A stretch of 46,334 nucleotides of DNA from positions 1-46,334 of IMG/VR virus record IMGVR_UViG_3300020045_000388; one strand, written 5' to 3'. The translations under genes were made by a program, and so were the position numbers. Origin of the DNA: a virus. Its lineage: Duplodnaviria; Caudoviricetes. Shown here one piece after another: positions 878-19,060 of this stretch (within the stretch, counting starts at the first letter, position 1; each line of letters opens with the position of its first letter). The notes under the pieces are model-generated. The model saw nothing but the letters and a program-made list of their open reading frames with translations, did not search any database and had not been told where the DNA came from.

Positions 878-1560
878 AAGAGCTAACCATTGCTTTCTCT
901 CCATATGGTAATGCTGATTCTGTCTATCCCTTTGACGAGCTATTTGCTTATAAGCAGGACGCAGCACAGGTGGGGTTTGACGGCGCTGACGCCTTTCTTT
1001 TGTGGGGAGGAACTGACATTCATCCCTCTTATTACAACCAAAACCCTAACAAGTTTAGTGGTGCTCCCCCGTCTCCCTCTAACCGAGATCAATGGGAATG
1101 GAAGGCTATGCAATATTGCAAAGCTAAGGGCATTCCTATTATTGGTGTTTGTCGTGGGGCTCAGTTTCTTTGTGCTTTTGCGGGAGGTAAGCTCATTCAA
1201 CATTGTGACGGACACAATAATGGACACCACATGGTTTTAGATGTGTATGGTCATTATTACATGGCATCATCTAGCCACCACCAGATGTTAGATGTGCACG
1301 GCACTCAGCATGAGCTTGTTGCTTGGTCTGCACCAGCAAAGAGTTCTTTTTATTATGGAGAAACCAACGAAACACCAAAGCACATAGCAGACGGTCTATC
1401 AGCAGGCACGTTCCGAGAGCCTGAGGTAGTGTTCTTTAACAGCATTAATGCTCTTGCAATTCAGGGCCATCCCGAATGGATGCCTGCCCATGACGTTTTT
1501 GTGGATAAAACCATTAATTATGTCAATGAATATTTGTTTAGTGGTAAGGTTTGGAAATAA
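874..1560 (+). CDS. Class I glutamine amidotransferase-like protein (peptidase C26 / gamma-glutamyl hydrolase family)
   Basis: GGTDIHP, nucleophile elbow GVCRGAQ, SSHHQ, and catalytic QGHPE. Confidence 0.88.
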   Translation: MKELTIAFSPYGNADSVYPFDELFAYKQDAAQVGFDGADAFLLWGGTDIHPSYYNQNPNKFSGAPPSPSNRDQWEWKAMQYCKAKGIPIIGVCRGAQFLCAFAGGKLIQHCDGHNNGHHMVLDVYGHYYMASSSHHQMLDVHGTQHELVAWSAPAKSSFYYGETNETPKHIADGLSAGTFREPEVVFFNSINALAIQGHPEWMPAHDVFVDKTINYVNEYLFSGKVWK

Positions 1561-1578
1561 TTCCTTAAGGAGAAAATC

Positions 1579-2331
1579 ATGCGTTTAGGTACTGACCCAG
1601 AAATCTTGTTGCAAGACAGCAACGGCTCCCCTGTTTCCGTCATAGGCTTGATTAAGGCTGATAAATGGAATCCAATGCAAATCCCAGACATGGCTAAAGG
1701 CTTCACCTTACAAGAGGATAATGTTTCTCTTGAATATGGCATTCCTCCCGCCGCGTCCGCCGATGAGTATGTGCAATATATCCAGAGCGTCATGCAAAAG
1801 AGCTTGGAATATTTGCCCGGTCTTTCTTTCTCAAAGCTCTCTTGCACCATCTACCCTGAAGAACAGATGCAACATCCGTTGGCTTATGTCTTTGGATGCG
1901 AGCCTGATTTTGATGCGTGGACTGGTAAGGTTAACAAGAAGCCCGAGCCTCCTCACCCTTTGATGCGTTCTGCTGGTGGGCACATTCATGTGGAAACAAA
2001 GCGCGACCCTTTGGAAGTTGTCCGTAACATGGACTTGTTCTTAGGTGTTCCTTCTGTTCTTATGGACAAAGGTGAACAGCGTAAGCAGATGTATGGTGGT
2101 GCTGGTGCTCATCGTGTGAAGCCTTATGGCGTGGAATATCGCACCCTCTCAAACTTCTGGATTTTTGAGGAACGGCTCATTCGCTGGGTTTGGAACCAAA
2201 CAGAACGGTCTATCAACAGCCAGCACATCGACGTTATGGCAGAACAGGACTTGATTCTTGAGGCCATTAACAACAATAACAAAGCAGTTGCGCAGGCATT
2301 GGTTAACCAGTATAATTTGGAGGTGATTTAA
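1579..2331 (+). CDS. phiEco32-like COOH-NH2 ligase type 2
   Basis: GTDPE, EDNVSLE, FGCEPDF, RSAGGHIH and YGVEYRTLSNFW motifs. AAGGAG RBS. Confidence 0.88.
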   Translation: MRLGTDPEILLQDSNGSPVSVIGLIKADKWNPMQIPDMAKGFTLQEDNVSLEYGIPPAASADEYVQYIQSVMQKSLEYLPGLSFSKLSCTIYPEEQMQHPLAYVFGCEPDFDAWTGKVNKKPEPPHPLMRSAGGHIHVETKRDPLEVVRNMDLFLGVPSVLMDKGEQRKQMYGGAGAHRVKPYGVEYRTLSNFWIFEERLIRWVWNQTERSINSQHIDVMAEQDLILEAINNNNKAVAQALVNQYNLEVI

Positions 2332-2924
2332 TGCTATTCATTCCTGAAACAGCGGAAGACATTATCCGCTATTACAAAAATACGTTTGTGAAGTTTAAGG
2401 AGACAGGAGACACCCTGTTTTACATTAAACAGGTGAAGGATTCTGTTGTTCATGGTATTTCCCAAGACGGCACTCCCTTTGAACTTTATCTAAGCTCTGC
2501 TCATCCATATGAGGTGGACTATGTCTTGCCTCGTAAGAGCTATTTCCAATATGGCCCGCATGCCTGTTTGTTGCAGCGTGTCCCTGCTAAACAATATCAA
2601 CGAGGAATTTCACAAAACAACGTTTCTCTCAATGCCCTTCGTTCTAATGGGGGACAGGCGGATATGGGCCTTGATTTCTCCATTCTCATGGCCTTTGTGT
2701 CTAAACAGGTGTTTGTAAACCTCGACATGGCGGTAAATTCCACACACACCTCAGTGGTTTTGGCTCCTCGCTTTGCTTTTGTGCCTAGCACACGGAAAGT
2801 TTATGCAGATTTCTTGTGTGTTGGGCAGCTTTTGACAAAAAGAAAGCATCTCAAGTGCTTTCATAACGTCTTTCGTCCAGAGCTAGAAAAACTAGTCCTT
2901 GACACAGAGTATAAAGTGATGTAA
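2331..2924 (+). CDS. Hypothetical protein of the amidoligase cluster
   Basis: 197-aa ORF, TAATG-coupled, between two ligase genes. Confidence 0.75.
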   Translation: MLFIPETAEDIIRYYKNTFVKFKETGDTLFYIKQVKDSVVHGISQDGTPFELYLSSAHPYEVDYVLPRKSYFQYGPHACLLQRVPAKQYQRGISQNNVSLNALRSNGGQADMGLDFSILMAFVSKQVFVNLDMAVNSTHTSVVLAPRFAFVPSTRKVYADFLCVGQLLTKRKHLKCFHNVFRPELEKLVLDTEYKVM

Positions 2925-2925
2925 C

Positions 2926-3693
2926 ATGACTATTGCATACAAATACGGTCTATCAGACTCTCCTTTGAATAACTGCCCGGTGTTTACAGCTGGTGTGGAA
3001 TGTGAAATTGAGAGTGTTAAGAACCCAAATGAGGATTTTGCAGGGTTTTCAGTCACGGAAGACGGCAGTTTGCGCAATAATGGGGTAGAGTTTATCTCTG
3101 AACCGCTGCCTAAGACAGCTTTGCTGGAATGTTTTGACAATTTACATGCAGAAATCCTTTATTATAAGGAGGCAGAAGCCTTTAGCCCACGAACATCCAC
3201 CCATGTGCACATCAATTGTCGTTCTTTGGAACCTTCTCAGGTAAAAAATCTCGTTCTTTTGTATGCCCTGTATGAGGATTTCTTCTTTGCTATGTGTGAG
3301 CAGGGCCGACGAGACAACATTCATTGTGTACCACTGACAGAGACTTATTTGCCTGCTCTTTATGACAAAGACCTTACCATTTTGGTAGATCGGTGGCATA
3401 AATACACAGCCTTGAACATTCTTCCCTTAACTAAGCTGGGAACTGTGGAATTTCGACACTTGCAAGGCACCGCAGATACACAACTATTTCAACAATGGCT
3501 CACAACTTTGGAGAATCTCTGGACAATGGCTCAACGCGAGACAATTTCAGCAGAAACTTTAGCAGACGAAACACTGCTTAAGGCATGGTGGTGTCAACTC
3601 TTTAGCCACAGCCCTCGCATCATGGCACTCTCTCCCTCTTTCAATAACATCATTGCAAACAGTTTGCTTGATGTTAAAATGGCTTTTATCTAA
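2926..3693 (+). CDS. Putative amidoligase (COOH-NH2 ligase fold)
   Basis: GVECEIE, DGSL, EFIS, STHVHIN, KYTALN and TVEFRH motifs. Confidence 0.85.
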   Translation: MTIAYKYGLSDSPLNNCPVFTAGVECEIESVKNPNEDFAGFSVTEDGSLRNNGVEFISEPLPKTALLECFDNLHAEILYYKEAEAFSPRTSTHVHINCRSLEPSQVKNLVLLYALYEDFFFAMCEQGRRDNIHCVPLTETYLPALYDKDLTILVDRWHKYTALNILPLTKLGTVEFRHLQGTADTQLFQQWLTTLENLWTMAQRETISAETLADETLLKAWWCQLFSHSPRIMALSPSFNNIIANSLLDVKMAFI

Positions 3694-3752
3694 GGCGTTC
3701 CAGGCACGGAACGGGTCTATCAACGTCGTTTAATCGACAGAGGAGATATATT

Positions 3753-4988
3753 ATTTGTGGCATCGTCGGGGTAGTTATTAAGGCCAATAATGGTCTTACC
3801 AAGCGTATAGAAGATAGCTTCTATAATTTATTGTTTGTTGACACTTTGCGTGGCGACGACTCAACAGGCATCATTGCCGTGGAGAAAGACACAACCTTTC
3901 ACATCATGAAGGAGGCATCAGAAGCTGCATGGTTTATCCCACAAGCTCAGTATAGCAAAGTAGGTAAGGGTATGTGGACAACAGGAAAGGCCTTAATTGG
4001 ACACAACCGTAAAGGCACTATGGGCAAGGTTGAGGATGAGAACGCTCACCCTTTTGTTGTTGACGATGACTTTGCAATGGTGCATAATGGAACTCTCACT
4101 GGTCATCATAAGCTGGCTGCAACCACGGTAGACAGTGAAGCCCTTGCCATCGTTCTTGCCAAAGCCTTTAAGGAGGAGCATTACAAAGAAGCTTTGGAGG
4201 CTCTGTTGCCCGACGTTAATGGTGCATATGCTGTGTCTATCTACGATCAGCGACATAACAAGGTGCGTCTGTTGCGTAACAAGGAACGACCAATGGCCTA
4301 TGTGGAGACTTCTGACGCATGGTTTTTTGCTAGCGAGGGACTAATGCTACATTGGATTCTTGCTCGTAATGGCTACACTGCACAGGATGTGTCCTCTCTT
4401 AAAACTGTACCGGAAGACACCGTAGTTACCTTTGACTTAGACACCAACACTTGTCTTGAGGAGAAAATAACAATAAAAAAATATACGCCCCCTCTCGCCA
4501 TCACTATGGTGCAGGGTGGGGCTACCCGTACAGCGAAGAAGATTTCCACGGTTACGGAATTTGCTGAGCTATCTAAGACTGCTTTTAAACGTCTGCGTAA
4601 ATCGTTGATGGGTACAAAGCTGGAATGGTGGGTAGACGACTACATTGAGGCAGGGTTTCCTAAAACCTATGATGAAGGGGAGACGGTGTTCAACATCATG
4701 GGCACCGCTAGTAAGATTGATTTTCAGAATACTGTTTTGTCTACCGTAGATATTAACGAGCTTAGGAAAATTCCAGACGATTTGATTGATAGGCTGTGGT
4801 GTGGCGACGTAGTGGAGGTTTCTTACAACACAAGTACCCGTAGCCTGTCTGTCTATGTTACCAATGCTTACCCCTTGCCTGTGTCTTATAAAAAGGTTAA
4901 GAAGGCTCCTGTCCCCGTTGTAATTGATTCCGTCTACATCCAAAGGAAACTCGATGAACAAGAAAAAACTGTCAATTTTATGCACTAA
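3753..4988 (+). CDS. Class II (Ntn) glutamine amidotransferase with inferred AUU start
   Basis: Extending ORF 3831 upstream gives ATT-TGT-GGC-ATC-GTC-GGG = (M)CGIVG, then RGDDSTG, GHNR, HPF, HNGT and DSE. AGGAG lies 7 nt before the ATT. Confidence 0.88.
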   Translation: MCGIVGVVIKANNGLTKRIEDSFYNLLFVDTLRGDDSTGIIAVEKDTTFHIMKEASEAAWFIPQAQYSKVGKGMWTTGKALIGHNRKGTMGKVEDENAHPFVVDDDFAMVHNGTLTGHHKLAATTVDSEALAIVLAKAFKEEHYKEALEALLPDVNGAYAVSIYDQRHNKVRLLRNKERPMAYVETSDAWFFASEGLMLHWILARNGYTAQDVSSLKTVPEDTVVTFDLDTNTCLEEKITIKKYTPPLAITMVQGGATRTAKKISTVTEFAELSKTAFKRLRKSLMGTKLEWWVDDYIEAGFPKTYDEGETVFNIMGTASKIDFQNTVLSTVDINELRKIPDDLIDRLWCGDVVEVSYNTSTRSLSVYVTNAYPLPVSYKKVKKAPVPVVIDSVYIQRKLDEQEKTVNFMH

Positions 4989-5664
4989 TGGTACCCGCAA
5001 AAGCACCAGCCTCAAGGAAATTGCCAAAGGACTATCAACAATTCTAGGGCACAAAGTGCTACGCACAACCAAGCTGTCCTTTAGGCGTAAACAATTCAAG
5101 TATGGACAGGGAGTTGATAAGCTCACGCAATATCAGTGGTTTGTAGATCAAGGTATTCCTGCTTTGGAATTTACAACCGATATCCAAACAGCCCTAACAT
5201 GGTGTATGGAAGGAGGCACCGTTTTTGGACGTAAGTTCTTGAACAGCTCTTGCGGTAAGGGGATTGTTGTGTTTGATAAGGACACCGCGGGAGCATTATG
5301 GGGCTGCCCAGTCTACACCCTCTACAAGAAAAAGAAACGTGAATTTCGTGTTCATGTTTTCAAGGACCAAGTGGTAGCTGTTGTAGAAAAGAAACGTAAA
5401 AAGGAATGGGATGGAACACAAGACACCAAAATCAGGAACCTTGCCAACGGGTACGTCTTCGTTCAAGACGTGGTGGATGAACCGGCAGGCTTACGAGAGC
5501 TGGCGCTCCGAGCAGCTCAGATTAGTCCATCTGACTTTCGAGGAGTGGATGTTGGTTACAACGAAAAGAAAGACGAACTCTTTGTCATCGAAGTAAATTC
5601 AGCGCCGGGCATTCAGGGAAACAACATTGGTAAATATTTGGAGGCTATTGTCAATCATGTTTAA
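4954..5664 (+). CDS. ATP-grasp ligase (RimK-like)
   Basis: DKLTQY, GKGIV, EFRVHV, RNLANG, GVDV and IEVNSAPG motifs. AAGGA RBS before ATG 4954. Confidence 0.85.
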   Translation: MNKKKLSILCTNGTRKSTSLKEIAKGLSTILGHKVLRTTKLSFRRKQFKYGQGVDKLTQYQWFVDQGIPALEFTTDIQTALTWCMEGGTVFGRKFLNSSCGKGIVVFDKDTAGALWGCPVYTLYKKKKREFRVHVFKDQVVAVVEKKRKKEWDGTQDTKIRNLANGYVFVQDVVDEPAGLRELALRAAQISPSDFRGVDVGYNEKKDELFVIEVNSAPGIQGNNIGKYLEAIVNHV

Positions 5665-6355
5665 ATGTAACATCACACACACGAACAAATATTCTGAAAT
5701 GGGACAGCCAAACCCAATGAAATGGCGGCTCATGTTCAAGGAGGCAGACGGTTCTCTGTCTTCTCAAAGCGGTCTTATTGTTTGTAAAGACTTCTTTAAC
5801 GATGTAGTGGCATGGAAACAGACAAAGACAGCCTTTAAAATTTACAACTTTGACAATCAGGTGAAGTTTAATGACGAGGGAATGTATATCATCTTGTCTA
5901 ACATTGCTGACAAGGTAAAATTCACCGAGAACATTCTCAAGGGAATTAACCCTCAGCTACAGGAGGACCTAGGAGTTTCCATCAAGGTCTATCAGCAGGG
6001 TCGTGGACGTGTAGTTGTCTTGCTTCCTCATGAAGTGTGGCAAAGCACTTATCACATCAGCCTTGTGTCCATGCTCATTCGCCTGAGCAATTATGCAGCA
6101 ACATACACCTGCTGGGAGGATTTTTACGCACCGGATGCTCCAATGAACACTATTGAGCATGCCTTTTCTACACAGGCTAAAGAATTTACCCTAAAACATA
6201 GGCTCTCTTTGCCAAAAGAAGTGGCTGGTTGCTGGTATTTCTCTCGTTTTGGGTATACCTCTAAAAGTAAATATGACATAGAGAGCAACATTGTCCACAA
6301 TAACGGGGCTACTGACTGGGCTCGTGCCTATAACGAATTGAAGGAAGAAGAATGA
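5657..6355 (+). CDS. Hypothetical protein
   Basis: Long ORF with GGAGG upstream of ATG 5657, coupled to both neighbours. Confidence 0.75.
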   Translation: MFKCNITHTNKYSEMGQPNPMKWRLMFKEADGSLSSQSGLIVCKDFFNDVVAWKQTKTAFKIYNFDNQVKFNDEGMYIILSNIADKVKFTENILKGINPQLQEDLGVSIKVYQQGRGRVVVLLPHEVWQSTYHISLVSMLIRLSNYAATYTCWEDFYAPDAPMNTIEHAFSTQAKEFTLKHRLSLPKEVAGCWYFSRFGYTSKSKYDIESNIVHNNGATDWARAYNELKEEE

Positions 6356-6525: not shown

Positions 6526-6527
6526 AA

Positions 6528-7352
6528 ATGGGACGCTTTGTAAAACATGAGAGTTGTAGTCGCTGTGGAAGCAGGGACAACCTTGGCCGCTATTCAGATG
6601 GAAGCGCCTTCTGTTTTGGGTGTGGTTATTATGAACGCGGGTCTATCAGCCAATTTGTAAAGGAGAGAGAGCATGGGCAAAGTGAAAACGAAGATGATTA
6701 TGGACGAATTCCACGTGGGGACGGCGAAGGAGTACGACCACGCCTTCCCGATGATGCAAGCAACATTATTCGCGGAGCCGGTAGGGAATGGCTTGCAAAA
6801 TACAACATTACCGCCTTGGAAACACTTAGAGCTGGATGGAAATGGTCAGACAGCTGGGAACAACTTCTTTTCCCCTTCTATGACAGAGGCAAACAACTCT
6901 GCTGCCTCCAAGCCCGAAACTTTAATCCTCAACGCGCAAGCAAAGCCAAGTATTACAACCAAGGAGAGAAAAGCGAGAGCTGGACAATTTACAAACACAC
7001 AAGACCCATTAACGCAAGAGAAGCTGAAGAAAGCTTTAGCGGAGATGGAAGCTTTTTACAAGAACGACCCCGTTCCCTTCTAATTCTCACTGAGGATGCT
7101 GTTTCTAGCCTCGTAGTGGCCCGTACAAGCGACGCAATGCCCCTCCTTGGTACCCACATAGCCAAAGAGAAATTAATGGCTCTAAGGGGCTTCTATGACC
7201 AGCTTGTTGTTTGGCTCGACAGTGACAAATACCGTGAGGCTAGGCAAATTGCTGACCAAGCAAAATTGATAGGGTTTGATGCTCGTGCTGAGTTTACGTC
7301 GCTCGACCCCAAAGATTTGTCTAATGATGAAATTAAGGAGAGATTGAAATGA
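6528..7352 (+). CDS. DNA primase (Zn ribbon plus TOPRIM)
   Basis: CSRCGSRD...FCFGC zinc ribbon, QARN, KYY, and TOPRIM motifs LTED, LLGT and WLDSD. Confidence 0.88.
   Translation: MGRFVKHESCSRCGSRDNLGRYSDGSAFCFGCGYYERGSISQFVKEREHGQSENEDDYGRIPRGDGEGVRPRLPDDASNIIRGAGREWLAKYNITALETLRAGWKWSDSWEQLLFPFYDRGKQLCCLQARNFNPQRASKAKYYNQGEKSESWTIYKHTRPINAREAEESFSGDGSFLQERPRSLLILTEDAVSSLVVARTSDAMPLLGTHIAKEKLMALRGFYDQLVVWLDSDKYREARQIADQAKLIGFDARAEFTSLDPKDLSNDEIKERLK
6673..7083 (+). CDS. Candidate overprinted gene nested in the primase (+1 frame)
   Basis: 136-aa ORF with TAAAGGAG 7 nt before the ATG and a protein-like C-terminal helix (EKLKKALAEMEAFY). Confidence 0.5.
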   Translation: MGKVKTKMIMDEFHVGTAKEYDHAFPMMQATLFAEPVGNGLQNTTLPPWKHLELDGNGQTAGNNFFSPSMTEANNSAASKPETLILNAQAKPSITTKERKARAGQFTNTQDPLTQEKLKKALAEMEAFYKNDPVPF

Positions 7353-7570: not shown

Positions 7571-7698
7571 GCGAAATCTGGATAAGCATGAGGGAGAAGA
7601 AACTGAGCGACACGCTAACGCTGATGACCGATACGCTGACACCATCGACGCAGCCCACAACATCAAGGAGCAGCCATAAAATATATTTTACAAAGGGC

Positions 7699-7728
7699 TT
7701 GACAAACAAGGGCAGAGTATGTTATACT
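7699..7728 (+). promoter_or_regulatory. Sigma70-type promoter upstream of the helicase
   Basis: TTGACA (7699-7704), 18-nt spacer ending in TGn, TATACT (7723-7728). Confidence 0.85.
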
Positions 7729-7735
7729 GAATATA

Positions 7736-7757
7736 TAAGATACTTATAAGTATCTTA
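7736..7757. repeat. Perfect 22-bp palindrome TAAGATACTTATAAGTATCTTA
   Basis: Self-complementary by inspection. It lies at the predicted transcription start in an AT-rich gap. Confidence 0.9.
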
Positions 7758-7787: not shown

Positions 7788-9026
7788 ATTGTACCTGAAC
7801 TAAGTGTAATTAAGTGTTTGTTAGATTACAACACATGGGAAACTTACAAGGATTCTCTGTCTGTTAAAGACTTGTCCAAAGAAGTTCAACCCTTCTATTC
7901 TGCTCTTGATTCTTTTCATCAGCAGAACACTGCTAAAACCCCACTGTCTGTGGGTGACTTGTCTAACCTCGTGTTAGCAACGTCTCACAAGGATCGAGAC
8001 TATAACATAGGTGTCTTGGAACAGCTTGAAGGTCTATCAGCAAGGCCTGACACCACAGCAATCTTGATTCAATCCATCCTGTCTAACAAAGCTCTCAAGG
8101 AAATCTCCTTGGCTGCTTATGACGTAACTGAAGGCAGGCTGGACCCAGCAAAACTGAGAGAGATGTTCCAAGACTTTCTTGGACAGGAAGAAGCAGCTTC
8201 GCAAGAGGAAGCTGTAGAGTTTGTAACAGATGATTTAGAGGAGCTTGCTAGTGGAGCAATCACGACTCACGGACTACGCTGGAGACTTTCAACACTTAAC
8301 CAAGTGTTGGGAAGCTTACGTAAAGGGGATTTTGGATTTATCTTCGCAAGACCAGAGACTGGAAAGACTACTTTTCTTGCAAGTGAAACTACTTACATGG
8401 CAGAGCAGCTAGACGAGGATGCAGGACCTATTGTCTGGTTTAACAATGAGGAGCAAGGAAGTAAAGTAAAGCTGAGGTGCTATCAAGCTAGCCTAGGCCT
8501 CACCATGACAGAGCTTCTTGCGGACCTTCCAGGCAACCGGGAGGCCTACATGGAGAAAACTCATGGCAAGCTTAAACTATACGACAGTGGGAACATTCAT
8601 AAGAACACTGTGGAAAGTCTATGCCGCCGGTACAAACCGTCATTGATTATCTTTGACCAAATAGACAAGATTCATGGATTCACAAATGATCGTGAGGACC
8701 TCCGCCTAGGAAGCATCTACGTGTGGGCTAGAGAGCTTGCAAAGAAGTATGCCCCCGTCATTGGGGTGTGTCAGGCTGATGGCACTGGAGAGGGTGTTAA
8801 GTGGCTTACAATGGGACATGTTGCTAATGCTAAAACTGCCAAGCAAGCTGAGGCTGACTGGATTGTAGGCATCGGCAAGGTTCCTGACCAAGGTTATGAG
8901 AACATTCGCTACCTCCATGCCAGCAAGAACAAGCTGCTAGGGGACAGCGATTCCATAGGCGACCAACGCCACGGCAAGAGAGAAGTTTTAATCCGCCCGG
9001 AGAGGGCACGTTACGAGGATATCTGA
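7788..9026 (+). CDS. DnaB-like replicative helicase, probable AUU start
   Basis: Walker A ARPETGKT, NNEE, IIFDQIDK, CQA and KQAEAD. AAGGAG lies 7 nt before an in-frame ATT at 7788, whereas TTG 7818 has no RBS. Confidence 0.9.
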   Translation: MVPELSVIKCLLDYNTWETYKDSLSVKDLSKEVQPFYSALDSFHQQNTAKTPLSVGDLSNLVLATSHKDRDYNIGVLEQLEGLSARPDTTAILIQSILSNKALKEISLAAYDVTEGRLDPAKLREMFQDFLGQEEAASQEEAVEFVTDDLEELASGAITTHGLRWRLSTLNQVLGSLRKGDFGFIFARPETGKTTFLASETTYMAEQLDEDAGPIVWFNNEEQGSKVKLRCYQASLGLTMTELLADLPGNREAYMEKTHGKLKLYDSGNIHKNTVESLCRRYKPSLIIFDQIDKIHGFTNDREDLRLGSIYVWARELAKKYAPVIGVCQADGTGEGVKWLTMGHVANAKTAKQAEADWIVGIGKVPDQGYENIRYLHASKNKLLGDSDSIGDQRHGKREVLIRPERARYEDI

Positions 9027-9597: not shown

Positions 9598-9822
9598 ATG
9601 AATACAAACAAGCAAATTAGATTTCTTGCCATTGAGGCTGGACTTATCTCGACAGAATACAATGGTTTTGACCAGATTGAGTTAACAGGAGCACAACGAA
9701 AGTTTGCTGAGTCAATTATCCGTGAGTGCGCGAAACTCACATTAGATTTTAAAAATGACGAGCATTATAGTGGTTGGCTAGACTATCGTGACGAGATTAA
9801 GAAACATTTTGGAATGAAATGA
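9598..9822 (+). CDS. Hypothetical protein
   Basis: 74-aa ORF ending IKKHFG, with ATGA overlap into the polymerase gene. Confidence 0.65.
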   Translation: MNTNKQIRFLAIEAGLISTEYNGFDQIELTGAQRKFAESIIRECAKLTLDFKNDEHYSGWLDYRDEIKKHFGMK

Positions 9823-10949
9823 ACATTCTCTCCTTGGACACCGAAACGTCCATTTTCAACAAAGGGAATTGTTATGATAAACGGAACAATCTTGTCTGCT
9901 ATAGCTTTGCTACTGACACTGGGACTAATGGTGCTGTACAATGGCCCGAGCAGGGACCCCAGTTGGTTCGATTATTGGACGCTGCAAATCTTGTTGTGGG
10001 TTTCAATTTTAAGTTTGATCTTCATTGGTTCATAAAAGAAGGCGTTTATGAACTAAGAAATAAACAGGTATGGGACGTACAAATTGCAGAATTCATCCTG
10101 TCCAATCAAACTCTACGCTTTCCCTCTCTTAACGAGACATGTGAGAAATATGGCATTCCCTTAAAGACGGACATTGTTAAGGAGGAATACTGGAACAAGG
10201 GGATAGACACAGCGGACATACCATGGACCATCCTATCTGAGTATGCCGAGCATGATGCTGTAATCACGCTGCAATGCTATCATGAGCAGAGAAAGCTTAT
10301 GACACCAGCACAGGTAAAGCTGTGCTACCTGATGTGCCAAGACCTTCAAATCCTACAAGAGATGGAAATGAACGGCCTTCCTTTCGATGAACAACTTTGT
10401 GACACTAGATCACTGGAGGTAGATGACCAAATATCTGCGTACAAGACTGCCCTCGCCAATATCTATCCTAATATTCCCATTAACTTTGGTAGTAATGACC
10501 ATCTGTCTGCCTTTCTTTATGGCGGTGTGGTTAAAGAAGAGGGTAAAGAGCATGTCGGATTCTTCAAAACAGGGGAGCGTAAGGGACAGCCCAAATACAA
10601 AAACATAATCATTGAGCACATCCTGCCTAGGCTGTATGAACCTCTAAAGGGTTCGGAGATGCAGAAGGAAGGAATCTTTGCTACAGATGAGGGAACTCTC
10701 CGCAAGCTCAAGGGTAAGAAGGGGGTGATACAACAAATCCTAGAGCTGTCTAAGCTGGAGAAGCTTAATGGAACCTATTACAAGGGACTGGTTAAGCTTC
10801 GCAAAGAAATGAATTGGGAAGAAGGAATTTTACATGGACAATTCAACCAAACCACTGCTCAAACCGGAAGGCTTAGTAGCTCCCGCCCCAACCTGCAAAA
10901 CTTCAGCTCCGACCTGCAAGACATCTTCATCAGCACCTATGTGGACTGA
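9819..10949 (+). CDS. Family A DNA polymerase, N-terminal subunit (3'-5' exonuclease, thumb, start of palm)
   Basis: ExoI LDTET, ExoII FNFKFDL, ExoIII YAEHD, and TGRLSSSRPNLQN near the C-terminus. Confidence 0.92.
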   Translation: MNILSLDTETSIFNKGNCYDKRNNLVCYSFATDTGTNGAVQWPEQGPQLVRLLDAANLVVGFNFKFDLHWFIKEGVYELRNKQVWDVQIAEFILSNQTLRFPSLNETCEKYGIPLKTDIVKEEYWNKGIDTADIPWTILSEYAEHDAVITLQCYHEQRKLMTPAQVKLCYLMCQDLQILQEMEMNGLPFDEQLCDTRSLEVDDQISAYKTALANIYPNIPINFGSNDHLSAFLYGGVVKEEGKEHVGFFKTGERKGQPKYKNIIIEHILPRLYEPLKGSEMQKEGIFATDEGTLRKLKGKKGVIQQILELSKLEKLNGTYYKGLVKLRKEMNWEEGILHGQFNQTTAQTGRLSSSRPNLQNFSSDLQDIFISTYVD

Positions 10950-11088
10950 TCTTGTCTACCGCCTACGGAAACGTGCTGAGATTCGACGGCAGATTCCTAG
11001 GGGAGAGCCAGACCGTATTGCAGATTTATTAGAAGAAGCAGCGAAAGCTCTAGAAAGTGTAAATGAACAAAGAACTAGAACATCTTGA
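10939..11088 (+). CDS. Small hypothetical protein between the polymerase halves
   Basis: MWTDLVYRLRKRAEIRRQIPRGEPDRIADLLEEAAKALE, the internal ATG of ORF 10834. Confidence 0.6.
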   Translation: MWTDLVYRLRKRAEIRRQIPRGEPDRIADLLEEAAKALESVNEQRTRTS

Positions 11089-11251
11089 ATATAACGACAG
11101 CATTGTTAATTTTATTAGCATTATTAATCAGCATGGGGCACAGAAGGTTTTACATGATGTGCAGGCCTATTATCCGGGCTTCTTTGATGAAATTAAAATC
11201 CAAATCAATCGCTTCCCTGTTAAACCAGTGGCGGCGCTCCTAAGGAAATAG
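11063..11251 (+). CDS. Small hypothetical protein between the polymerase halves
   Basis: 62-aa ORF overlapping the previous gene. Confidence 0.55.
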   Translation: MNKELEHLEYNDSIVNFISIINQHGAQKVLHDVQAYYPGFFDEIKIQINRFPVKPVAALLRK

Positions 11252-11311
11252 TCGCTTGAGTACAAGCTCCGTGGAAAACACTGTAGTAAATACAGAGGAG
11301 GATGCCCTACC

Positions 11312-12047
11312 ATGCTGATTCAATGTGACGCGAGTCAGTTGGAATAGCTACGATTGGCGTACTATTTTACAACTAGCAAATGACCAAGTAGGGATTGATG
11401 AAATTATAAGTGGAGAAGACACCCATGCAAAGAATCAAACTGCTTTTGACCTTCCTTCTAGGCTCATTGCTAAGATTTTCCTCTTTAGAACCATCTTCCG
11501 AGGTAGTGGCTGGAGTTTTGCTAATGATCCTGATTTCATGCATGTATCTAGCTCGTCCAAGTTTTGGGACGGGATGAATGAGAAATTTTACAAGAAGTAT
11601 AAAGGCATTGATGAATGTCACAGCAAATGGAAGGACATTGTTGTAGCGGGAAGGCCTATAGAAGGCCCTATGGGACGTTCTTGGACAATCCCCATGGGTA
11701 GGGACTATAAAGGGGAACTAAAGGTTCCTTGGACCACTCTCTCAAACTACCCTGTTCAGGGCACAGGAGCAGACGTAATGATGATGGCTAGGATTATGGC
11801 TTACAAACGTATTAAACAAGCTAAAATAGATTGCCTGTTTCGTTCCACTGTCCATGATTCTATTTGTGTAGATACACATGCTTCCAATGCACAGGCTCTA
11901 GCCAATCTCTTTGCTCAAGTCTTTGATGATTTACCTATGGAAATCTACAAAGTATTTGGGTATGAGTGGGTAGTGCCTATGGCATGTGAGACTAAGGGTG
12001 GCCCCAACATGAAAGACCAAAAGAAAGTTTTACGAAACGATAAATAA
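11312..12047 (+). CDS. Family A DNA polymerase, C-terminal catalytic subunit; frame broken by a 10-nt insert at 11345-11354
   Basis: GGAGG RBS, then ATG gives MLIQCDASQLE*. WRTILQLA resumes 10 nt later. Motif B RLIAKIFLF, NYPVQGTGAD and motif C TVHDS are intact. Confidence 0.88.
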
Positions 12048-12050
12048 TAC

Positions 12051-12080
12051 TTGACAAGACAGCCTAAAGTATGGTATACT
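12051..12080 (+). promoter_or_regulatory. Sigma70-type promoter, twin of the 7699 promoter
   Basis: TTGACA (12051-56), 18-nt spacer with TGn, TATACT (12075-80). It shares AGTATGNTATACTGAA with the first promoter. Confidence 0.85.
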
Positions 12081-12086
12081 GAAGGT

Positions 12087-12551
12087 ATGAACACATTAAA
12101 ATTAACACAGAGACTTCTACGAAACTCAACACTCGATCCCGAAACAGGTTGTTGGAATTGGGATAATAGTAAGAGTAGATGGGGATATGGACATATCAAT
12201 GTAGCTGGAAAGATAAAACTAGCACATCGCGTTTCTTATGCCACATTAAATGGCGCTATCCCAGATGGCCTGTGTGTTTTGCACAGGTGTGATAATCCTG
12301 CTTGTATTAACCCAGAACATTTATTTTTAGGAACTAATGCAGATAATGTAGCAGATAAGGTAAAGAAAAACAGACAGAGTTTAATAGGACAGGGAAAAGG
12401 AGAGAAACACACTATGTCGAAGTTGACAAACAAAGATGTATTGAATATCCGTGCTTCCTCTTTGTCCCAAAATAAGTTAGCGGCTATGTATCATACAACG
12501 CAGTCTAACATTAGTTTAATCAGAAGTCGTGCTCATTGGGCACATATTTAA
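12087..12551 (+). CDS. HNH homing endonuclease
   Basis: GCWNW, GYG, AHRVSY, and VLHRCDNPACINPEHLFLGTNADN. Confidence 0.9.
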   Translation: MNTLKLTQRLLRNSTLDPETGCWNWDNSKSRWGYGHINVAGKIKLAHRVSYATLNGAIPDGLCVLHRCDNPACINPEHLFLGTNADNVADKVKKNRQSLIGQGKGEKHTMSKLTNKDVLNIRASSLSQNKLAAMYHTTQSNISLIRSRAHWAHI

Positions 12552-12564: not shown

Positions 12565-13122
12565 ATGAACGTAACCATTCTCTCGGTAGAAGTTAAAACA
12601 ATTCCGACGAATAAAGGGAGCTACCAAAAAGCAGAGGTAGCTTATAAGAATAATTCTTTTCAGGGTAAAGTAGAGGGTAAAGCCGTGATGAGCTTTGGTG
12701 CTACAGCAGGTGCCTTCAAGACTCTCTCACAGGCACAGAGCGGAGAGACTTATGAGGTGGAGGTTGTCAAGAATGCTGCTGGCTATAATGATTGGACCTC
12801 CCTGACACCGGCAGGTCTATCAACAGCCCCAGGAGCAGCTCCTGCTGCGACAACCAACAAACCATCTACAGCAACCCCAGTACGAAGCACCTATGAAACG
12901 CCTGAAGAACGTGCAGCTAAGCAAGTTTACATTATCCGTCAGTCTAGTCTTAGTGCTGCTGTCTCTACTCTGTCTGTGGGTGCTAAAGTCCTTAAGCCCG
13001 ACGACGTTATCACTCTTGCTACCAAGTATGTAAACTTTGTTATGGGTGTTAAGGACAAGGGTGCTAGTGGGTTTGAAGACATCCCTGACTTTGCTGATGA
13101 AGAGTTTCCAAGTCCTAATTAA
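12565..13122 (+). CDS. Putative single-stranded DNA-binding protein
   Basis: Beta-rich N-terminus, Ala/Pro/Thr linker and acidic aromatic tail (FEDIPDFADEEF). It lies between the polymerase and exonuclease genes. Function is inferred. Confidence 0.55.
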   Translation: MNVTILSVEVKTIPTNKGSYQKAEVAYKNNSFQGKVEGKAVMSFGATAGAFKTLSQAQSGETYEVEVVKNAAGYNDWTSLTPAGLSTAPGAAPAATTNKPSTATPVRSTYETPEERAAKQVYIIRQSSLSAAVSTLSVGAKVLKPDDVITLATKYVNFVMGVKDKGASGFEDIPDFADEEFPSPN

Positions 13123-14058: not shown

Positions 14059-14222
14059 AAGATTTCTATCATGCAGTGCGAGTAATCTATGCTCTCTGTA
14101 AAGAGACCGACTGGATATATGATGAAGTAGTTACAGAGTTTATTAAACATCAAAAAAACAATCCAACCGGCAGTTTAAACGATCAGGTACAGTCGGCATT
14201 CATGGCCGCTGCTCATAAATGA
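14040..14222 (+). CDS. Hypothetical protein
   Basis: AGGAGAGG RBS, 60 aa, ATGA overlap. Confidence 0.6.
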   Translation: MEIPPLKDFYHAVRVIYALCKETDWIYDEVVTEFIKHQKNNPTGSLNDQVQSAFMAAAHK

Positions 14223-14578
14223 CCAAATGGAGTCCTGCTCGTAAAAAAGCCTTCATTGTTTCTGTTTTACGGAGCGGTACCCAGCGTTACCCTCCTAAAT
14301 ATGAAACTTTGAACGAGGCTAAAACAGAAAAGAAAATAAACAACAAGAGTGGGAGACTTGCCCAGCATTTTCAATGCGCTGCTTGTAAGAAGGACTTCCC
14401 TGCAAAGGATGTTCAATGTGATCATGTCCTTCCAGTTGTAGACCCCAAGCAGGGGTTTGTCTCATGGGATGTTTACATCGAACGTCTCTATTGTGAGAAA
14501 GAGAATTTCCAAATCCTCTGTCGTGACTGCCATCATTCCAAAACACAGAAAGAAAAGAAAACACGTGCTAATAAATAA
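14219..14578 (+). CDS. HNH endonuclease
   Basis: CAAC...CDHVLPV...NFQILCRDCHHSKT. Confidence 0.85.
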   Translation: MTKWSPARKKAFIVSVLRSGTQRYPPKYETLNEAKTEKKINNKSGRLAQHFQCAACKKDFPAKDVQCDHVLPVVDPKQGFVSWDVYIERLYCEKENFQILCRDCHHSKTQKEKKTRANK

Positions 14579-14750
14579 ATCAGTGGAGCTAGAGAATGGC
14601 TCTGTACAATTTAATGGAGAACTTAGTCAGCAAGAGCTTGACCTCGTTCTCACAATGGGTCTTAATTATCTTCTTGCTAAAGGCGCTGTACCGTTTACCA
14701 GCAAGCAGAAGGAAGACGTTCATCAAAATCAAAGTGGGTTTGAGCAATGA
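14565..14750 (+). CDS. Hypothetical protein
   Basis: GTG start inside ORF 14457 (MLINKSVELENG...). It fills the gap between genes. Confidence 0.6.
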   Translation: MLINKSVELENGSVQFNGELSQQELDLVLTMGLNYLLAKGAVPFTSKQKEDVHQNQSGFEQ

Positions 14751-14953
14751 AATGTTTCCTTAAATGTTTAGGAAGTCTCCTCTTCTTACCTCCTTTTATA
14801 CTCCTATGGATGTGGATTGTGTTCCTTCTTATTGTACTTGCTCCTGTAAGAGGTATGATATGGATTGCTGGATGTTCTGATCCAAGTGAGTCTTTTATAG
14901 GGCTATGGGTAGACGTAAGTTTAGATTTTTTAGAATGGTATCAACAGCTATGA
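14747..14953 (+). CDS. Small membrane protein
   Basis: Long hydrophobic segment and ATGA overlaps at both ends. Confidence 0.6.
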   Translation: MKCFLKCLGSLLFLPPFILLWMWIVFLLIVLAPVRGMIWIAGCSDPSESFIGLWVDVSLDFLEWYQQL

Positions 14954-15714
14954 GTAAAATCTTAGTATTACCTGACGTGCAGGCGAAACCGGGGACAGAC
15001 TTCGCCTACCTGAATAAGATAGGCCGATATATGGTGGATAAGAAGCCTGACACCGTTGTGTGCCTAGGGGACTTCACTGACATGCCTTCTCTATCTTCCT
15101 ATGACCAAGGTAAGAAGAGCTTTGAAGGACGACGTTATTTAGCAGATATTGAGGCTGCTAAGGATGCTATGTGTGCTTTCTTATCCCCTATGTGGGAGTT
15201 TAATGCTAAGGCTAAGAAAAACAAGGAGAAGCAATATCACCCTCGGATGGTGCTCACACTCGGAAACCACGAGAATCGAATCAATCGAGCTGTCAATGAT
15301 GACCCAAAACTAGAAGGAGTCTTAAGTGTCGATCATTTGGGATATGAGGGATTTGGATGGGAGGTGGTTCCCTTCCTTGACGTTATCGTTATTGATGGTG
15401 TGGCCTTTTCTCACTACTTTGTCACGGGACTCATGGGCCGTCCTGTCACGTCAGCTGCGGCCTGTCTTACAAAGAAACACCAATCGGTCATACAGGGCCA
15501 TCAACAGGGTCTTCAAATCGCCACTGGTTACAAGGCTGATGGAAGCCTTCTGACAAGCGTTATAGCAGGCAGCTGCTATGAACATAATGAAGACTATATG
15601 AGCTGGCAAAGCAATAACCATTGGCGGGGCTTTCTCATGCTGCATGACGTACAGGATGGAGCCTTTGATTTGATGCCTGTAAGTTTGTCTTATATTAACA
15701 AGAAATATTCATGA
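14950..15714 (+). CDS. Calcineurin-like metallophosphoesterase
   Basis: LPDVQ, LGDFTD, LGNHE, FSH and QGHQQ motifs. Confidence 0.88.
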   Translation: MSKILVLPDVQAKPGTDFAYLNKIGRYMVDKKPDTVVCLGDFTDMPSLSSYDQGKKSFEGRRYLADIEAAKDAMCAFLSPMWEFNAKAKKNKEKQYHPRMVLTLGNHENRINRAVNDDPKLEGVLSVDHLGYEGFGWEVVPFLDVIVIDGVAFSHYFVTGLMGRPVTSAAACLTKKHQSVIQGHQQGLQIATGYKADGSLLTSVIAGSCYEHNEDYMSWQSNNHWRGFLMLHDVQDGAFDLMPVSLSYINKKYS

Positions 15715-16361
15715 AAGTTGTTCCACAGAAAGTAGACCTTATTAACCACATGGGGAACGACCTGTCTGTTGTCAATGCAGCCCGTGTTAGTTTTGGTAAG
15801 GTTGTTACAGAGCTTACAGAGAAAGATGTTAGGCTCATAAACTATCTTGCTAAACACAACCATTGGACTCCGTTTGCTCACACATCAATCACCCTACGCA
15901 TTAAATGTCCCATCTTCGTCGCACGTCAATTAGGCAAACATCAAGTTGGTTTGGTATGGAATGAAGTCTCTCGTAGGTATGTAGATGAAGAGCCGGAATG
16001 GTTTCTTCCTACGAGCTGGCGCTCTAGTCCAGAAACTAACATCAAGCAAGGTAGTGGACAAGCACTCGTTGAATATGACAACACAAAAATACGGAGGATT
16101 GTTAGTGCTTGCTTAGAAACTTATCTGCACATGATTGACATAGGGGTGGCTCCTGAACAGGCTCGTATGCTCTTGCCTCAGAACATGATGACAAAGTTTA
16201 TCTGGACAGGTTCTCTTGCTGCTTTTGCGAGAGTTTGTAAGCTTCGTCTTGATCCACATACCCAGAAAGAAACACAAGATGTTGCGAAAGAGATCAGCAC
16301 AATTCTTGAATCCCTTTATCCCCACAGCTACAAAGCTCTTATGGGAGAAACAAATGATTAA
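15711..16361 (+). CDS. thyX: FAD-dependent thymidylate synthase
   Basis: VNAARVSF, HWTPFAH, ARQLGKH, NEVSRRY, EQARMLLP and TQKE motifs. Confidence 0.93.
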   Translation: MKVVPQKVDLINHMGNDLSVVNAARVSFGKVVTELTEKDVRLINYLAKHNHWTPFAHTSITLRIKCPIFVARQLGKHQVGLVWNEVSRRYVDEEPEWFLPTSWRSSPETNIKQGSGQALVEYDNTKIRRIVSACLETYLHMIDIGVAPEQARMLLPQNMMTKFIWTGSLAAFARVCKLRLDPHTQKETQDVAKEISTILESLYPHSYKALMGETND

Positions 16362-16626
16362 CGAAAAAGACATTAAAGACTACAAAGACAACGAGCATGT
16401 TCAGCCTGACCCGGTGAACCATCCAAAACATTACACATCACACCCTTCTGGCATTGAGGCCATTCAAATCACAGAGCACATGTCTTTCCTTATGGGCAAC
16501 GCTATGAAATATCTCTGGCGTGCTGATTTGAAGAATGGTTTAGAAGACCTTAAAAAAGCAGCATGGTACATCAACCGTGAAATAGAAAAACGAACAGAAG
16601 AAAACACAATCCATGACTTTAAATGA
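16354..16626 (+). CDS. DUF3310 / T7 gp1.7-like protein (putative nucleotide kinase)
   Basis: DPVNHPKHYT...GNAMKYLWRA..KNGLEDLKKAAWY. Confidence 0.82.
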   Translation: MINEKDIKDYKDNEHVQPDPVNHPKHYTSHPSGIEAIQITEHMSFLMGNAMKYLWRADLKNGLEDLKKAAWYINREIEKRTEENTIHDFK

Positions 16627-16927
16627 CTACCAACAACAGGCTATGGCCTTTCGTCTTCCTACGGCAGACTCTCTATATGCTCTGCTTAACCTTTGCAGTG
16701 AGGTGGGAGAGCTTCAAGGCCTCATTGCCAAAACTATTCGGGACGGCGTAGACGAAGAAAACTATCCAACCCTTCTGAAGAAAGAGCTAGGAGATATTCT
16801 GTGGTGTCTCTCTGCTGTCTGCTTAGACAATGGCTATCTCTTGGAAGACATTGCTAAAACTAACATTGCCAAACTTGCTAAACGTAAGGAAGCAGGGACC
16901 ATTGGTGGTATTGGTGACAACCGTTGA
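16613..16927 (+). CDS. MazG-like NTP pyrophosphohydrolase
   Basis: LCSEVGE, KELGDILW and NIAKLAKR motifs. Confidence 0.88.
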   Translation: MTLNDYQQQAMAFRLPTADSLYALLNLCSEVGELQGLIAKTIRDGVDEENYPTLLKKELGDILWCLSAVCLDNGYLLEDIAKTNIAKLAKRKEAGTIGGIGDNR

Positions 16928-16928
16928 C

Positions 16929-17075
16929 ATGGAAGAACTCAAACAACTAATCATCCACAACCTTGATATTGAAGAACTGATGGACATTCTCGGAATGGAC
17001 ATAGCAGACTTAGTAGAAAAGCTAGAGGATGAAATCAATGAGAATTTTGACGAGCTAATGAAGGCTGTACAATGA
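16929..17075 (+). CDS. Small acidic hypothetical protein
   Basis: MEELKQLII...FDELMKAVQ, with ATGA overlap. Confidence 0.65.
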   Translation: MEELKQLIIHNLDIEELMDILGMDIADLVEKLEDEINENFDELMKAVQ

Positions 17076-17245
17076 AAGACAACAACCATTCTCCCACAGA
17101 GTCTACAGAGAAGAAGCATTACAAAAAGAGCTACCTTGTTCGCCTCTTAGAGGAGAAGGAGGCTTCCCAAGAGATTGAGCGATGTATTGCCTACGATCAG
17201 GAGGATTTGAATTATGAAACCTACCCCAGCAGAAAACCTGATTAG
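17072..17245 (+). CDS. Small hypothetical protein (57 aa, not in the track)
   Basis: MKDNNHSP...YPSRKPD*, read manually and coupled to the previous gene. Confidence 0.55.
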   Translation: MKDNNHSPTESTEKKHYKKSYLVRLLEEKEASQEIERCIAYDQEDLNYETYPSRKPD

Positions 17246-17387
17246 CCCTTACATCTGTAAGAAACATCGACAATGGATGAAGAAGGGGGTTTGTATCATT
17301 TGTGAAAACGAACGAACACAAGCCCTATATAATTATAAACAAGAACGGGGAATTAAAGAAGTTCCCATTAAGGTTTTAAAGTTGTGA
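17214..17387 (+). CDS. Small protein with CxxH and CxxC motifs (57 aa, not in the track)
   Basis: AGGAGG RBS, then MKPTP...CKKH...CIIC. Its TGA overlaps the RNR GTG. Confidence 0.6.
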   Translation: MKPTPAENLISPYICKKHRQWMKKGVCIICENERTQALYNYKQERGIKEVPIKVLKL

Positions 17388-19060
17388 GTATTTTTAGAAA
17401 CGCATTCGCGGAGAACATTTTCAAACTGAAGTATGCCAAGTTTCCCGGAGAGACATGGGAACAGCGTGCTGCTGACATTGTAGAGGATGTGTGTGGAACA
17501 CAATGGGGTAAGAGTCAGGCCCTTATGTGTAAAGAAGACCGTGACCAGCTAGAGCAATATATCCGAGAGATGAAGATGATTCCGGGTGGTCGGTATATTT
17601 GGTATAGCGGACGCGGACATTCCTATTTCAATAACTGCTTTTTGCTACGAGCAGAAGAGGACACACGAGAGGAATGGGCTGCTGTCATGCAGCGCTCTGT
17701 AAGCTGTTTAATGACAGGAGGAGGCATTGGTATTGACTACAGCATTCTGCGTGCTAAGGGCAGCTCTCTGAGCCGTACAGGGGGCATTGCTAGTGGTCCT
17801 CTTCCTTTGATGCAGATGGTTAACGAAGCGGGGCGAGGTGTGATGCAAGGAGGCTCACGACGTTCTGCTATCTATGCCTCTCTCAATTGGAAACATGCAG
17901 ACATTCAGGACTTCCTCACCATTAAGAACTGGGACGAGCTTACACGACAACAGAAAGCCATTAATTTTAATTATGCTGCTCCGCTCGACATGACTAACAT
18001 TTCTGTTAATTATGACGATGCAAGTCTAGGAGGTTATACAAAAGACGTTAATGGCAACGTAATTGCAAGTGAACTTGCAACCAACCCCGTCTTCATGCAG
18101 AATGTCCGACAGGCAATGGAAACGGGTGAGCCCGGTTTCTCTTTCAACTTTGGAGACAAACAGAATGAAACCCTACGTAACGCTTGTACAGAAGTTACAA
18201 GCGAGGATGATTCAGATGTATGCAACCTTGGTTCTATTAACCTTGGTAACATCACTTCTCTTGAGGAATTCAAATCGGTGGTATCACTGGCATCTAAATT
18301 CCTTGTCTGTGGAACCCTTCGCGCCGACCTTCCATATGAAAAAGTCTATAAAGTTAGGGAAAAGAACCGTAGGCTTGGTTTGGGACTTATGGGCATTCAC
18401 GAGTGGCTCCTCAAGCGAGGACACAACTACGAAGTCGTCCCAGAACTCCACGAATGGTTGAAGGTCTATCAACAGGAAAGTGAAAGGGCAGCAAATGAAC
18501 ATTGCGACAGGTTCTATATTTCTCGACCCGTGGCTTACCGAGCAATTGCACCAACAGGAAGTATTGGAATTTTGGCGTCTACTTCAACAGGTGTTGAGCC
18601 GCTTTTTGCAGTTGCCTACAAGCGACGTTTCTTATCTGAAGGAACTAAATGGAAGTATCAATATGTTGTTGATGGAACAGCTGCAACTCTCATTAAAGAC
18701 TTTGGAGTCGATCCCAGTAAAATAGAAAGTGCTATTGACCTAAGCGAGAATTATGAACAACGAATTAAATTCCAAGCGGACATACAAGATTACGTTGACA
18801 TGTCCATCTCATCCACTATTAACCTACCTAGTTGGGGAACAGCGGGAAACTCTCCTGCCACTGTTTCTAAATTCACTAAAACTCTCGCTAAATACGCCCC
18901 ACGGCTACGTGGCTTTACCTGTTACCCAGATGGAAGTCGAGGAGGTCAACCCCTAACCTCTGTGCCATATGAGGAAGCTCTTAAGCACAAGGATGTTGTC
19001 TACGAAGAAGCTCTAGACATTTGTGACATCAGTGGTAAAGGAGGTAGCTGTGGTGTTTAA
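17384..19060 (+). CDS. nrdJ: Ribonucleotide reductase, probably class II (adenosylcobalamin-dependent)
   Basis: NNCFL, GGSRRSA, NACTE, CNLGSINL, RRLGLG, APTGS and C-terminal Cys pair. No small (R2) subunit gene is in the window. Confidence 0.85.
   Translation: MSIFRNAFAENIFKLKYAKFPGETWEQRAADIVEDVCGTQWGKSQALMCKEDRDQLEQYIREMKMIPGGRYIWYSGRGHSYFNNCFLLRAEEDTREEWAAVMQRSVSCLMTGGGIGIDYSILRAKGSSLSRTGGIASGPLPLMQMVNEAGRGVMQGGSRRSAIYASLNWKHADIQDFLTIKNWDELTRQQKAINFNYAAPLDMTNISVNYDDASLGGYTKDVNGNVIASELATNPVFMQNVRQAMETGEPGFSFNFGDKQNETLRNACTEVTSEDDSDVCNLGSINLGNITSLEEFKSVVSLASKFLVCGTLRADLPYEKVYKVREKNRRLGLGLMGIHEWLLKRGHNYEVVPELHEWLKVYQQESERAANEHCDRFYISRPVAYRAIAPTGSIGILASTSTGVEPLFAVAYKRRFLSEGTKWKYQYVVDGTAATLIKDFGVDPSKIESAIDLSENYEQRIKFQADIQDYVDMSISSTINLPSWGTAGNSPATVSKFTKTLAKYAPRLRGFTCYPDGSRGGQPLTSVPYEEALKHKDVVYEEALDICDISGKGGSCGV

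Follow-up and report, generated by a model that had tools for sequence, protein, structure and literature searches.

Why would a phage genome carry the same nine-letter word nine times on one strand and not once on the other? The question is raised by a 46,334-nt stretch of viral DNA, IMG/VR record IMGVR_UViG_3300020045_000388 taken in its entirety (the window, G000 in our genome panels), which belongs to a LUZ24/phiEco32-type podovirus and in which GGTCTATCA is the 9-mer with the highest count, with nine copies on the + strand and none on the − strand. A first-pass annotation of the same letters had seen in this word a directional cis-signal, with a Chi-like site, a primase site and an antitermination or RNA-binding site among its options. 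The signal itself stands, the word being conserved, polarised and turning over in position across relatives, and the interpretation is partly supported; none of the mechanisms then listed fits best, whereas programmed single-strand nicks, absent from that list, do. Taken as a whole, our reading is that the GGTCTATCA family probably marks programmed nicks made by a 100-aa HNH protein that the phage itself encodes. Its first part, that the packaged genome has single-strand nicks, in its top strand, at the family GG[T/A]C[T/G][A/G]TCA, is very likely; its second part, the HNH protein as the cutter of the word, is held with less assurance, as probable. The nicking phenomenon is already known; the dialect and the candidate enzyme are new.

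The nine copies reported by the first-pass annotation (Table 1) were all found again; no exact copy lies past position 18471 on either strand, which leaves the structural arm empty as had been noted by eye, and the copies fall in all three codon phases (phases 0, 1 and 2 holding four, two and two copies, respectively), with one between genes. The proposed (R)CAG tail was retained in part: a purine (R) directly follows the word in 9/9 copies, RCAG in only 5/9. The enrichment survives all the null models applied. Indeed, Markov models of orders 1–5 expect 0.11–0.54 copies, 0/100 dinucleotide shuffles attain nine (mean 0.26, maximum 2), and 2000 synonymous-codon shuffles give at most four, with a floor of one, since the intergenic copy stays fixed. 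One has to keep in mind that the word was picked after being seen; as no 9-mer whatsoever exceeded seven copies among 300 codon shuffles, this choice is accounted for, and a de novo statistic for polarised words puts GGTCTATCA first in the window. Two one-mismatch copies, both GGACTATCA, and a copy of GGACGATCA, all on the + strand, had escaped the first reading. When the GGACTATCA variants (GGAC in their 5' half) are counted in, having entered the spacing test only after they had been seen, the first nine sites are separated by gaps of 654–1391 nt (coefficient of variation 0.29), more even than random (P=0.0009); beyond them, gaps grow to about 5 kb. The clustering of copies on the early side is real, but the left end of the window is a contig edge: a related strain assembles to 49,366 nt (run X5, a single unbroken contig), so about 2–3 kb are missing from the window, probably with the termini. 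A boxA-like CTTTAACAGC, also considered as a signal, was dropped, its copies being scattered.

Relatives hold the density of the word while its position turns over. Among IMG/VR loci found through the COOH-NH2 ligase, 13/13 carry GGTCTATCA, always early-sense and never on the opposite strand, and Alcaligenes phage QDWS535, the closest named relative (TerL 59%), has 11 copies of GGTCGATCA and five of GGTCTATCA, all early-sense. The turnover follows from the offset of the site from the start of the ligase gene, which is 196, 222, 240, 628 or 685 nt depending on the genome. The conservation of individual sites is incomplete: in the related locus L017 (74–80% nucleotide identity), five of the nine exact sites are kept, two are lost, one is gapped and one unaligned. 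Clades among the helicase relatives have dialects of their own (GGTCGATCA, GGACGATCA, GGACTATCA or GGTCGGTCA, with GGTCGATAA in G014), spacing is regular in 7/7 relatives tested (P 0.005–0.024), and no dialect was seen in the MEP401-like group (35% GC). Genome G031 shows polarity in both directions; it is probably a chimera, with two related early arms head to head whose paralogues are about 45–90% identical. Tandem triplets of the word also occur close to where the early arm begins, apparently within its first gene (L006:4477-4511, L008:7112-7146, L010:950-989 and L012:7370-7409), with a period of 13 nt (18 then 13 in L010 and L012).

A single-element phage promoter, an antitermination site or an RNA-binding site on early transcripts would account for a word that is nearly always in sense orientation to early genes, and even for the lone bottom-strand copy of many relatives, which is in sense orientation to a late gene. 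The shifting offsets from the ligase gene speak against such a role, as do the antisense late-arm copies of QDWS535 and others and the case of G036, where most copies are antisense to early genes. In addition, 103 site contexts, searched over 45 nt around the word, hold no second conserved element, the scan of the window proteins in PHROGs and Pfam gave no sigma factor match, and sigma-70-like promoters stand elsewhere (7699 and 12051). We therefore consider this explanation very improbable.

Chi-like sites taming the host RecBCD/AddAB at the entering end deserve the same low credence. Polarity, density at the left end and the triplets at the early-arm start of L006, L008, L010 and L012 are what such a site would produce, and Methylophilus luteus (G043) holds GGTCTATCA at moderate frequency, with 116 copies vs 32 for the reversed control and, in 200 kb, 13 observed vs 3.4 or 7.5 expected. 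This frequency, 2–4 times the Markov expectation, comes with unskewed strands: 6+/7− in the same 200 kb, and mixed along a 2-Mb contig. Pusillimonas is not enriched (37 vs 42) and Polaromonas little (16 vs 11), so that none of the three betaproteobacterial genomes tested, none of which is established as the phage's host, shows the polarised enrichment that a Chi-like role had been expected to leave. Bacterial tandem copies are spread over many phyla without concentration in any taxon (80 of 120 loci), and Salmonella, Vibrio, Pseudomonas and Erwinia phages carry related words. GCTGGTGG, the Chi sequence of enteric bacteria, is unrelated to the window word. Least probable of all is a role as a longer version of the site that the phage primase recognises. 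The window does encode a T7-type primase and helicase, and the T7 primase site begins with GGTC, as does the window word; against this, T7-type sites would be spread along the entire lagging-strand template, yet a stretch of 27 kb has no copy on either strand, the primase is found in 7/7 genomes without the motif, and dialects alter the GTC itself (GGAC).

What a polarised 9-mer of this kind can do is better illustrated by phages whose virion nicks have been mapped. In phage tf, 14 ligase-sealable nicks lie at TACT/RTGMC, all on the top strand and 11 in the left half, the left end being the one that stays attached to tf heads; the sections consulted give the function of the nicks as unknown and leave the nickase gene unnamed (PMC3517423). 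In Rembedalsseter, WACTRTGAC is nicked at 13/13 copies, and it is described as enriched in 60 related phages and not outside that Pseudomonas cluster (PMC11780129). A read excess was recorded at the LUZ24-type word GTACTATGAC in P1-14Or01 and Ab22 (PMC3634792, PMC4482731). Knowledge of programmed nicks in phage DNA goes back about 50 years, and their function is still described as open (PMC11780129; bioRxiv 10.64898/2026.09.21.753257). Those of T5/BF23 and phiKMV-like phages are likewise one-strand, sequence-linked and of unknown function in the parts consulted, at words unrelated to that of the window (PMC3517423, PMC10644984).

Our de novo statistic recovers the published nick motifs in tf, LUZ24 and Rembedalsseter (in LUZ24, GTACTATGAC at 7/0), and the tf nick sites are evenly spaced (P=0.003). 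From the tf type to the window type, polarised words form a graded series with a common core, C-K-R-T-S-A: TACTGTGAC (Bjorn, 12/0), CTACTGTGA (7-11, 14/1) and CTACGGTGA (LAh_8, 7/2); TACTATCA (Vibrio phage 275E43-1, 8/1; ICP2, 6/0, weak by the de novo statistic) and GCTATCAT (Pecta, 11/0) as a bridge; and GGACTATCA (G011, 5/0), GGTCTATCA, GGTCGATCA (QDWS535, 11/0) and GGTCGGTCA (G013, 6/0) on the window side. The word of TM27A, GCGCACTCA (9/0), fits more loosely. The LUZ24-like phages also share with the window an asymmetric one-strand 9-mer present in all frames, biased to the left half and regularly but ever more widely spaced, a convergent two-arm genome with an amide-ligase cassette, and a homologous small HNH gene. 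They differ from it in both halves of the word (GG[T/A]C at 5', TCA at 3' in the window), in an unrelated packaging module, in hosts that are probably betaproteobacterial for the window group, and in the tandem triplets and lone bottom-strand copy of some of its relatives. Assemblies gave no decision on the nicks: in run X4, a related strain broke into two contigs that end ~10–20 nt 3' of the 1393 and 5986 copies, the inner one at a depth of 10.3 vs 22.4, while run X5 is unbroken and run X3 is fragmented and of low depth; as contig depth cannot rank regions, none of this was counted as evidence. Of 51 contig ends, three fall within 30 nt of a motif vs 0.5–1.5 expected, which speaks neither clearly for nor clearly against breaks there.

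If the word is a nick site, which protein cuts it? The candidate is encoded between terL and the probable terS, and its stop codon overlaps the terL start. It is very basic and has no cysteine, hence no CxxC zinc sites; its Pfam HNH match (E 0.0009) is under the curated cut-off, but the residues D53, H54, N68 and N77 of the D-H...N...N catalytic motif are invariant across 52 homologues. The AlphaFold model (pLDDT, a per-residue confidence score, of 75) has HNH domains as its top structural rows, all with E>0.4 and Z<5. A hidden Markov model built on homologues of the clade finds HNH open reading frames (ORFs) in tf (E 2.5e-24, L173:16129-16416), LUZ24 (9.4e-23, L098:15622-15933) and Rembedalsseter (6.8e-21, 16811-17101), where the public annotations list, in place of the conserved HNH, an overlapping ORF of a different frame. 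Between tf and LUZ24, 78/93 positions agree in the HNH frame vs 35/89 in the annotated frame, and the differences fall 15/8/44 by codon position. The tf protein matches 251 phage records and that of the window 32. Small HNH proteins adjacent to the terminase are known strand-specific nickases (PMC3592412). N.phiGamma, HK97 gp74 and the GVE2 HNH resemble the window protein in being small and beside terminase genes; they have CxxC zinc sites, recognise 3–7 bp and come from cos phages (PMC3592412), whereas the window protein is cysteine-free and goes with a 9-mer that recurs along the early arm.

Of the 71 window proteins, the HNH protein alone is present in 22/22 genomes with the motif and in 0/7 without it. 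Left out of this count were G002, G008, G021, G026, G027 and G036, which have the word and no HNH match and lack the genome end bearing terS and HNH, as well as G007 (HNH and six early-strand copies); G031 stood outside the panels. In the set assembled before HNH was noticed, the gene is in 15/15 positives, and three genomes have neither. Seventeen named phages were also tested, twelve chosen by their HNH match and five as expected negatives. Related polarised words were found in Bjorn, Rembedalsseter, Salmonella phage 7-11, LAh_8 and Vibrio phage 275E43-1; Pecta, an expected negative, carries both the HNH gene (E 1e-11) and its 11 copies of the word; PA11, Phriendly, ParKuw1 and CRP-235 have neither gene nor word; and CW02, MN03, VP41s3 and ctwe8250 have the gene and no clear word.

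The type of HNH protein also varies with the dialect. In the HNH tree and alignment, an 'RGETGVG' helix pairs with TGA(C) words and a 'Y..S.PEQ' helix with TCA words, TAC/TGC 5' halves go with glycine-rich tails and GG[T/A]C with tails of other kinds, and 275E43-1 is a hybrid in protein and word alike; MN03 has a tf-type helix, yet no clear TGAC word. Identity to the window HNH is 60–76% in four distant genomes of the same dialect vs 39–44% in four others, a gap that is absent from TerL, capsid, helicase, polymerase, portal and TerS and partial for the ligase. Among new loci found through HNH, early-strand counts of GG[T/A]CGGTCA and GG[T/A]C[T/G]ATCA are 56 and two over 16 loci of the W-helix type, and none and ten over four of the Y-helix type; all 20 were selected by eye among 50 loci with long upstream flanks, the remainder being mostly other subtypes without a listed word. 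Part of this co-variation can come from shared ancestry.

Would a protein that binds the word and does not cut it, for instance to order or shield the DNA that enters first, explain as much? The co-occurrence and co-variation data are the same for both, the protein is very basic, and in the GGTCGGTCA group GH partly replaces DH. The invariance of the catalytic H and N in the 52 close homologues and the physical nicking of homologous words in tf and Rembedalsseter make binding without cutting improbable, if slightly less so than a Chi-like or promoter role.

Several observations weigh against nicking by the HNH protein, and they concern both the word and the enzyme. Likeness between 9-mers is by itself weak evidence; GG[T/A]CTATCA fails the published consensus, be it TACTRTGMC or WACTRTGAC, and because of this difference we did not file it as a LUZ24/tf motif member. 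The nicks of tf and Rembedalsseter were physically seen, whereas those of the window are predicted from its sequence. LUZ24 sites are not significantly regular in spacing (P=0.24), many relatives have one bottom-strand copy per genome in their largest late gene (1300–1700 aa), and polarity is reversed in G036 (L171-L172), with GGTCGATCA antisense to early genes in six cases vs one. As for the protein, Foldseek gave no match at E<=0.001 with the model, and the best VIA rows are weak, namely the Gme HNH nickase 4H9D (Z 4.8, root-mean-square deviation 7.7, 82 aligned) and the GVE2 HNH 5H0O (Z 4.4); a PDB sequence search returned only HNH matches of E 0.56–0.67. The gene adjoins the terminase in the window, whereas tf and LUZ24 have it in their early arm. 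Kin share HNH and word alike, 7/22 positives and 4/7 negatives were picked by having or lacking an HNH match, and the amide-ligase cassette genes come close to the same pattern (20–21/22 positives, 2/7 negatives). Finally, HNH is present in 13/13 'unclear' genomes, where the word is weak, absent or unrelated, and ~30/50 HNH loci with long upstream flanks hold no listed dialect; the gene is thus not sufficient for the word. Parsimony counts four dialect changes on the HNH tree and likewise four on each of seven other gene trees.

Some of these points would suit nick sites served by another cutter (terminase, resolvase or a host enzyme), HNH being co-inherited, for example for terminal-repeat processing: the gene without a clear word in 13 genomes and many further loci, the failure of parsimony to set HNH apart, and its overlap with the terL start. 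Terminase is nevertheless poorly matched to the word, with TerL homologues in 15/22 positives and 5/7 negatives and TerS in 11/22 positives; one dialect crosses two packaging modules (G013/G017 vs G019/ctOsX528); and the identity gap between dialects is a property of HNH that TerL, TerS, capsid, helicase, polymerase and portal do not share. We rate another cutter as unlikely, though it is the most credible of the alternatives.

Polarity, conservation with positional turnover, spacing, kinship of the words, and the presence and co-variation of HNH are established here; programmed nicking by HNH would then proceed as follows. The protein would be translated together with terL, act late in infection, and nick the top strand at GGTCT/ATCA, a position suggested by alignment with TACT/RTGAC. 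T5 nicking maps to late genes, sciA and sciB (PMC3517423). Nicks would be densest in the left part of the DNA, where they might serve as swivels easing twist and bending at packaging or ejection, and they would be resealed after DNA entry. The swivel purpose is a tentative proposal that we hold somewhat below even; the idea has been raised before, for tf (PMC3517423) and for terminase-adjacent HNHs (PMC3592412). T5 mutants without nicks are described as viable (PMC11780129), so the benefit may be conditional.

A wider claim, on which our judgement is evenly poised, is that a single family of zinc-free HNH nickases of ~100 aa, so far overlooked, writes a graded nick ruler into the virion DNA of many podoviruses (Bruynoghevirus, Zobellviridae, Grimontviridae and the betaproteobacterial clade of the window) with a modular specificity, the N-terminal helix setting the 3' half (TGAC vs TCA, A vs G) and the C-terminal tail the 5' half (TAC vs GG[T/A]C). 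The nick code would then be readable from the HNH protein. Nicked genomes would extend well past one Pseudomonas cluster, and natural nickases of about 100 residues, recognising ~9 bp with several specificities, would be at hand. As the candidate is small and present in the culturable tf, LUZ24 and QDWS535, a clean nick-less mutant is possible, which would open ideas on packaging, ejection, recombination and anti-defence to direct test. The dialect family, searched for as four exact 9-mers, was not found in the literature covered, and no paper naming the nickase of LUZ24-like phages was found there, most subscription journals being outside that search.

Table 1. Word copies, variants and terminase-region features of the window.
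Feature	Position	Strand	Remarks
GGTCTATCA	1393..1401	+	glutamine amidotransferase gene, phase 0; kept in L017; nick predicted at GGTCT/ATCA
GGTCTATCA	2207..2215	+	COOH-NH2 ligase gene, phase 1; kept in L017
GGTCTATCA	2947..2955	+	amidoligase gene, phase 0; lost in L017
GGTCTATCA	3714..3722	+	intergenic
GGTCTATCA	5986..5994	+	phase 2; lost in L017
GGTCTATCA	6640..6648	+	primase gene, phase 1; kept in L017
GGTCTATCA	8031..8039	+	helicase gene, phase 0; kept in L017
GGTCTATCA	12814..12822	+	phase 0; kept in L017
GGTCTATCA	18463..18471	+	ribonucleotide reductase gene, phase 2
Variant GGACTATCA	673..681	+	kept in L017; chief dialect of G011; likely of the same site class as GGTCTATCA
Variant GGACTATCA	5029..5037	+	homologous L017 site is GGTCTATCA
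Variant GGACGATCA	33380..33388	+	late arm, antisense; may be a chance occurrence
Terminase large subunit, main exon	42603..43970	−	
Group I intron in terL (Rfam RF00028)	44003..44682	−	Rfam match overlaps exon 1; boundaries approximate
LAGLIDADG ORF inside terL intron	44038-44454	−	
Terminase large subunit, exon 1	44637..44789	−	matches N-terminus of uninterrupted TerL in G001 and G006
100-aa Cys-free minimal HNH protein (phrog_4590)	44789-45091	−	candidate site-specific nickase
Terminase small subunit, probable	45644..46216	−	from position and conservation; no family match

The window consists of two convergent arms, with the amide-ligase cassette and replication genes on the + strand and the virion and packaging genes on the − strand. 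The cassette (874-5664) comprises two amidotransferases, a COOH-NH2 ligase, an amidoligase and an ATP-grasp protein. DNA polymerase A (9819-12047) is made of two ORFs with a small ORF between them, and it is also split in QDWS535 and MEP401. Two similar near-consensus sigma-70 promoters (7698-7736 and 12050-12088) stand directly ahead of or within inserted genes. On the packaging side, the intron breaks terL within the A-P-R-G / H-A-K-S motif, the TerL of G001 and G006 being an uninterrupted 505 aa, and a tRNA-Trp(CCA) gene (45568-45643, −) lies directly downstream of the probable terS.

The lone bottom-strand copy is found in G001, G003, G004, G005, G007, G008, G012, G016, G020, G021, G027 and ctOsX528, where it often encodes G-L-S-T; the window has no such copy. 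Synechococcus phage MinM2 (L219-L222) combines the HNH family with a very strong TGAACCGGA (21/5), unlike the other words. The early arm of G014 holds a second strong repeat, a palindromic TATAGATAC-N-TCTATA-like element in eight copies, and CCTAAYRTTAGG-like palindromes occur in QDWS535, G003 and G009; the palindromes of these four genomes are possibly operator sites.

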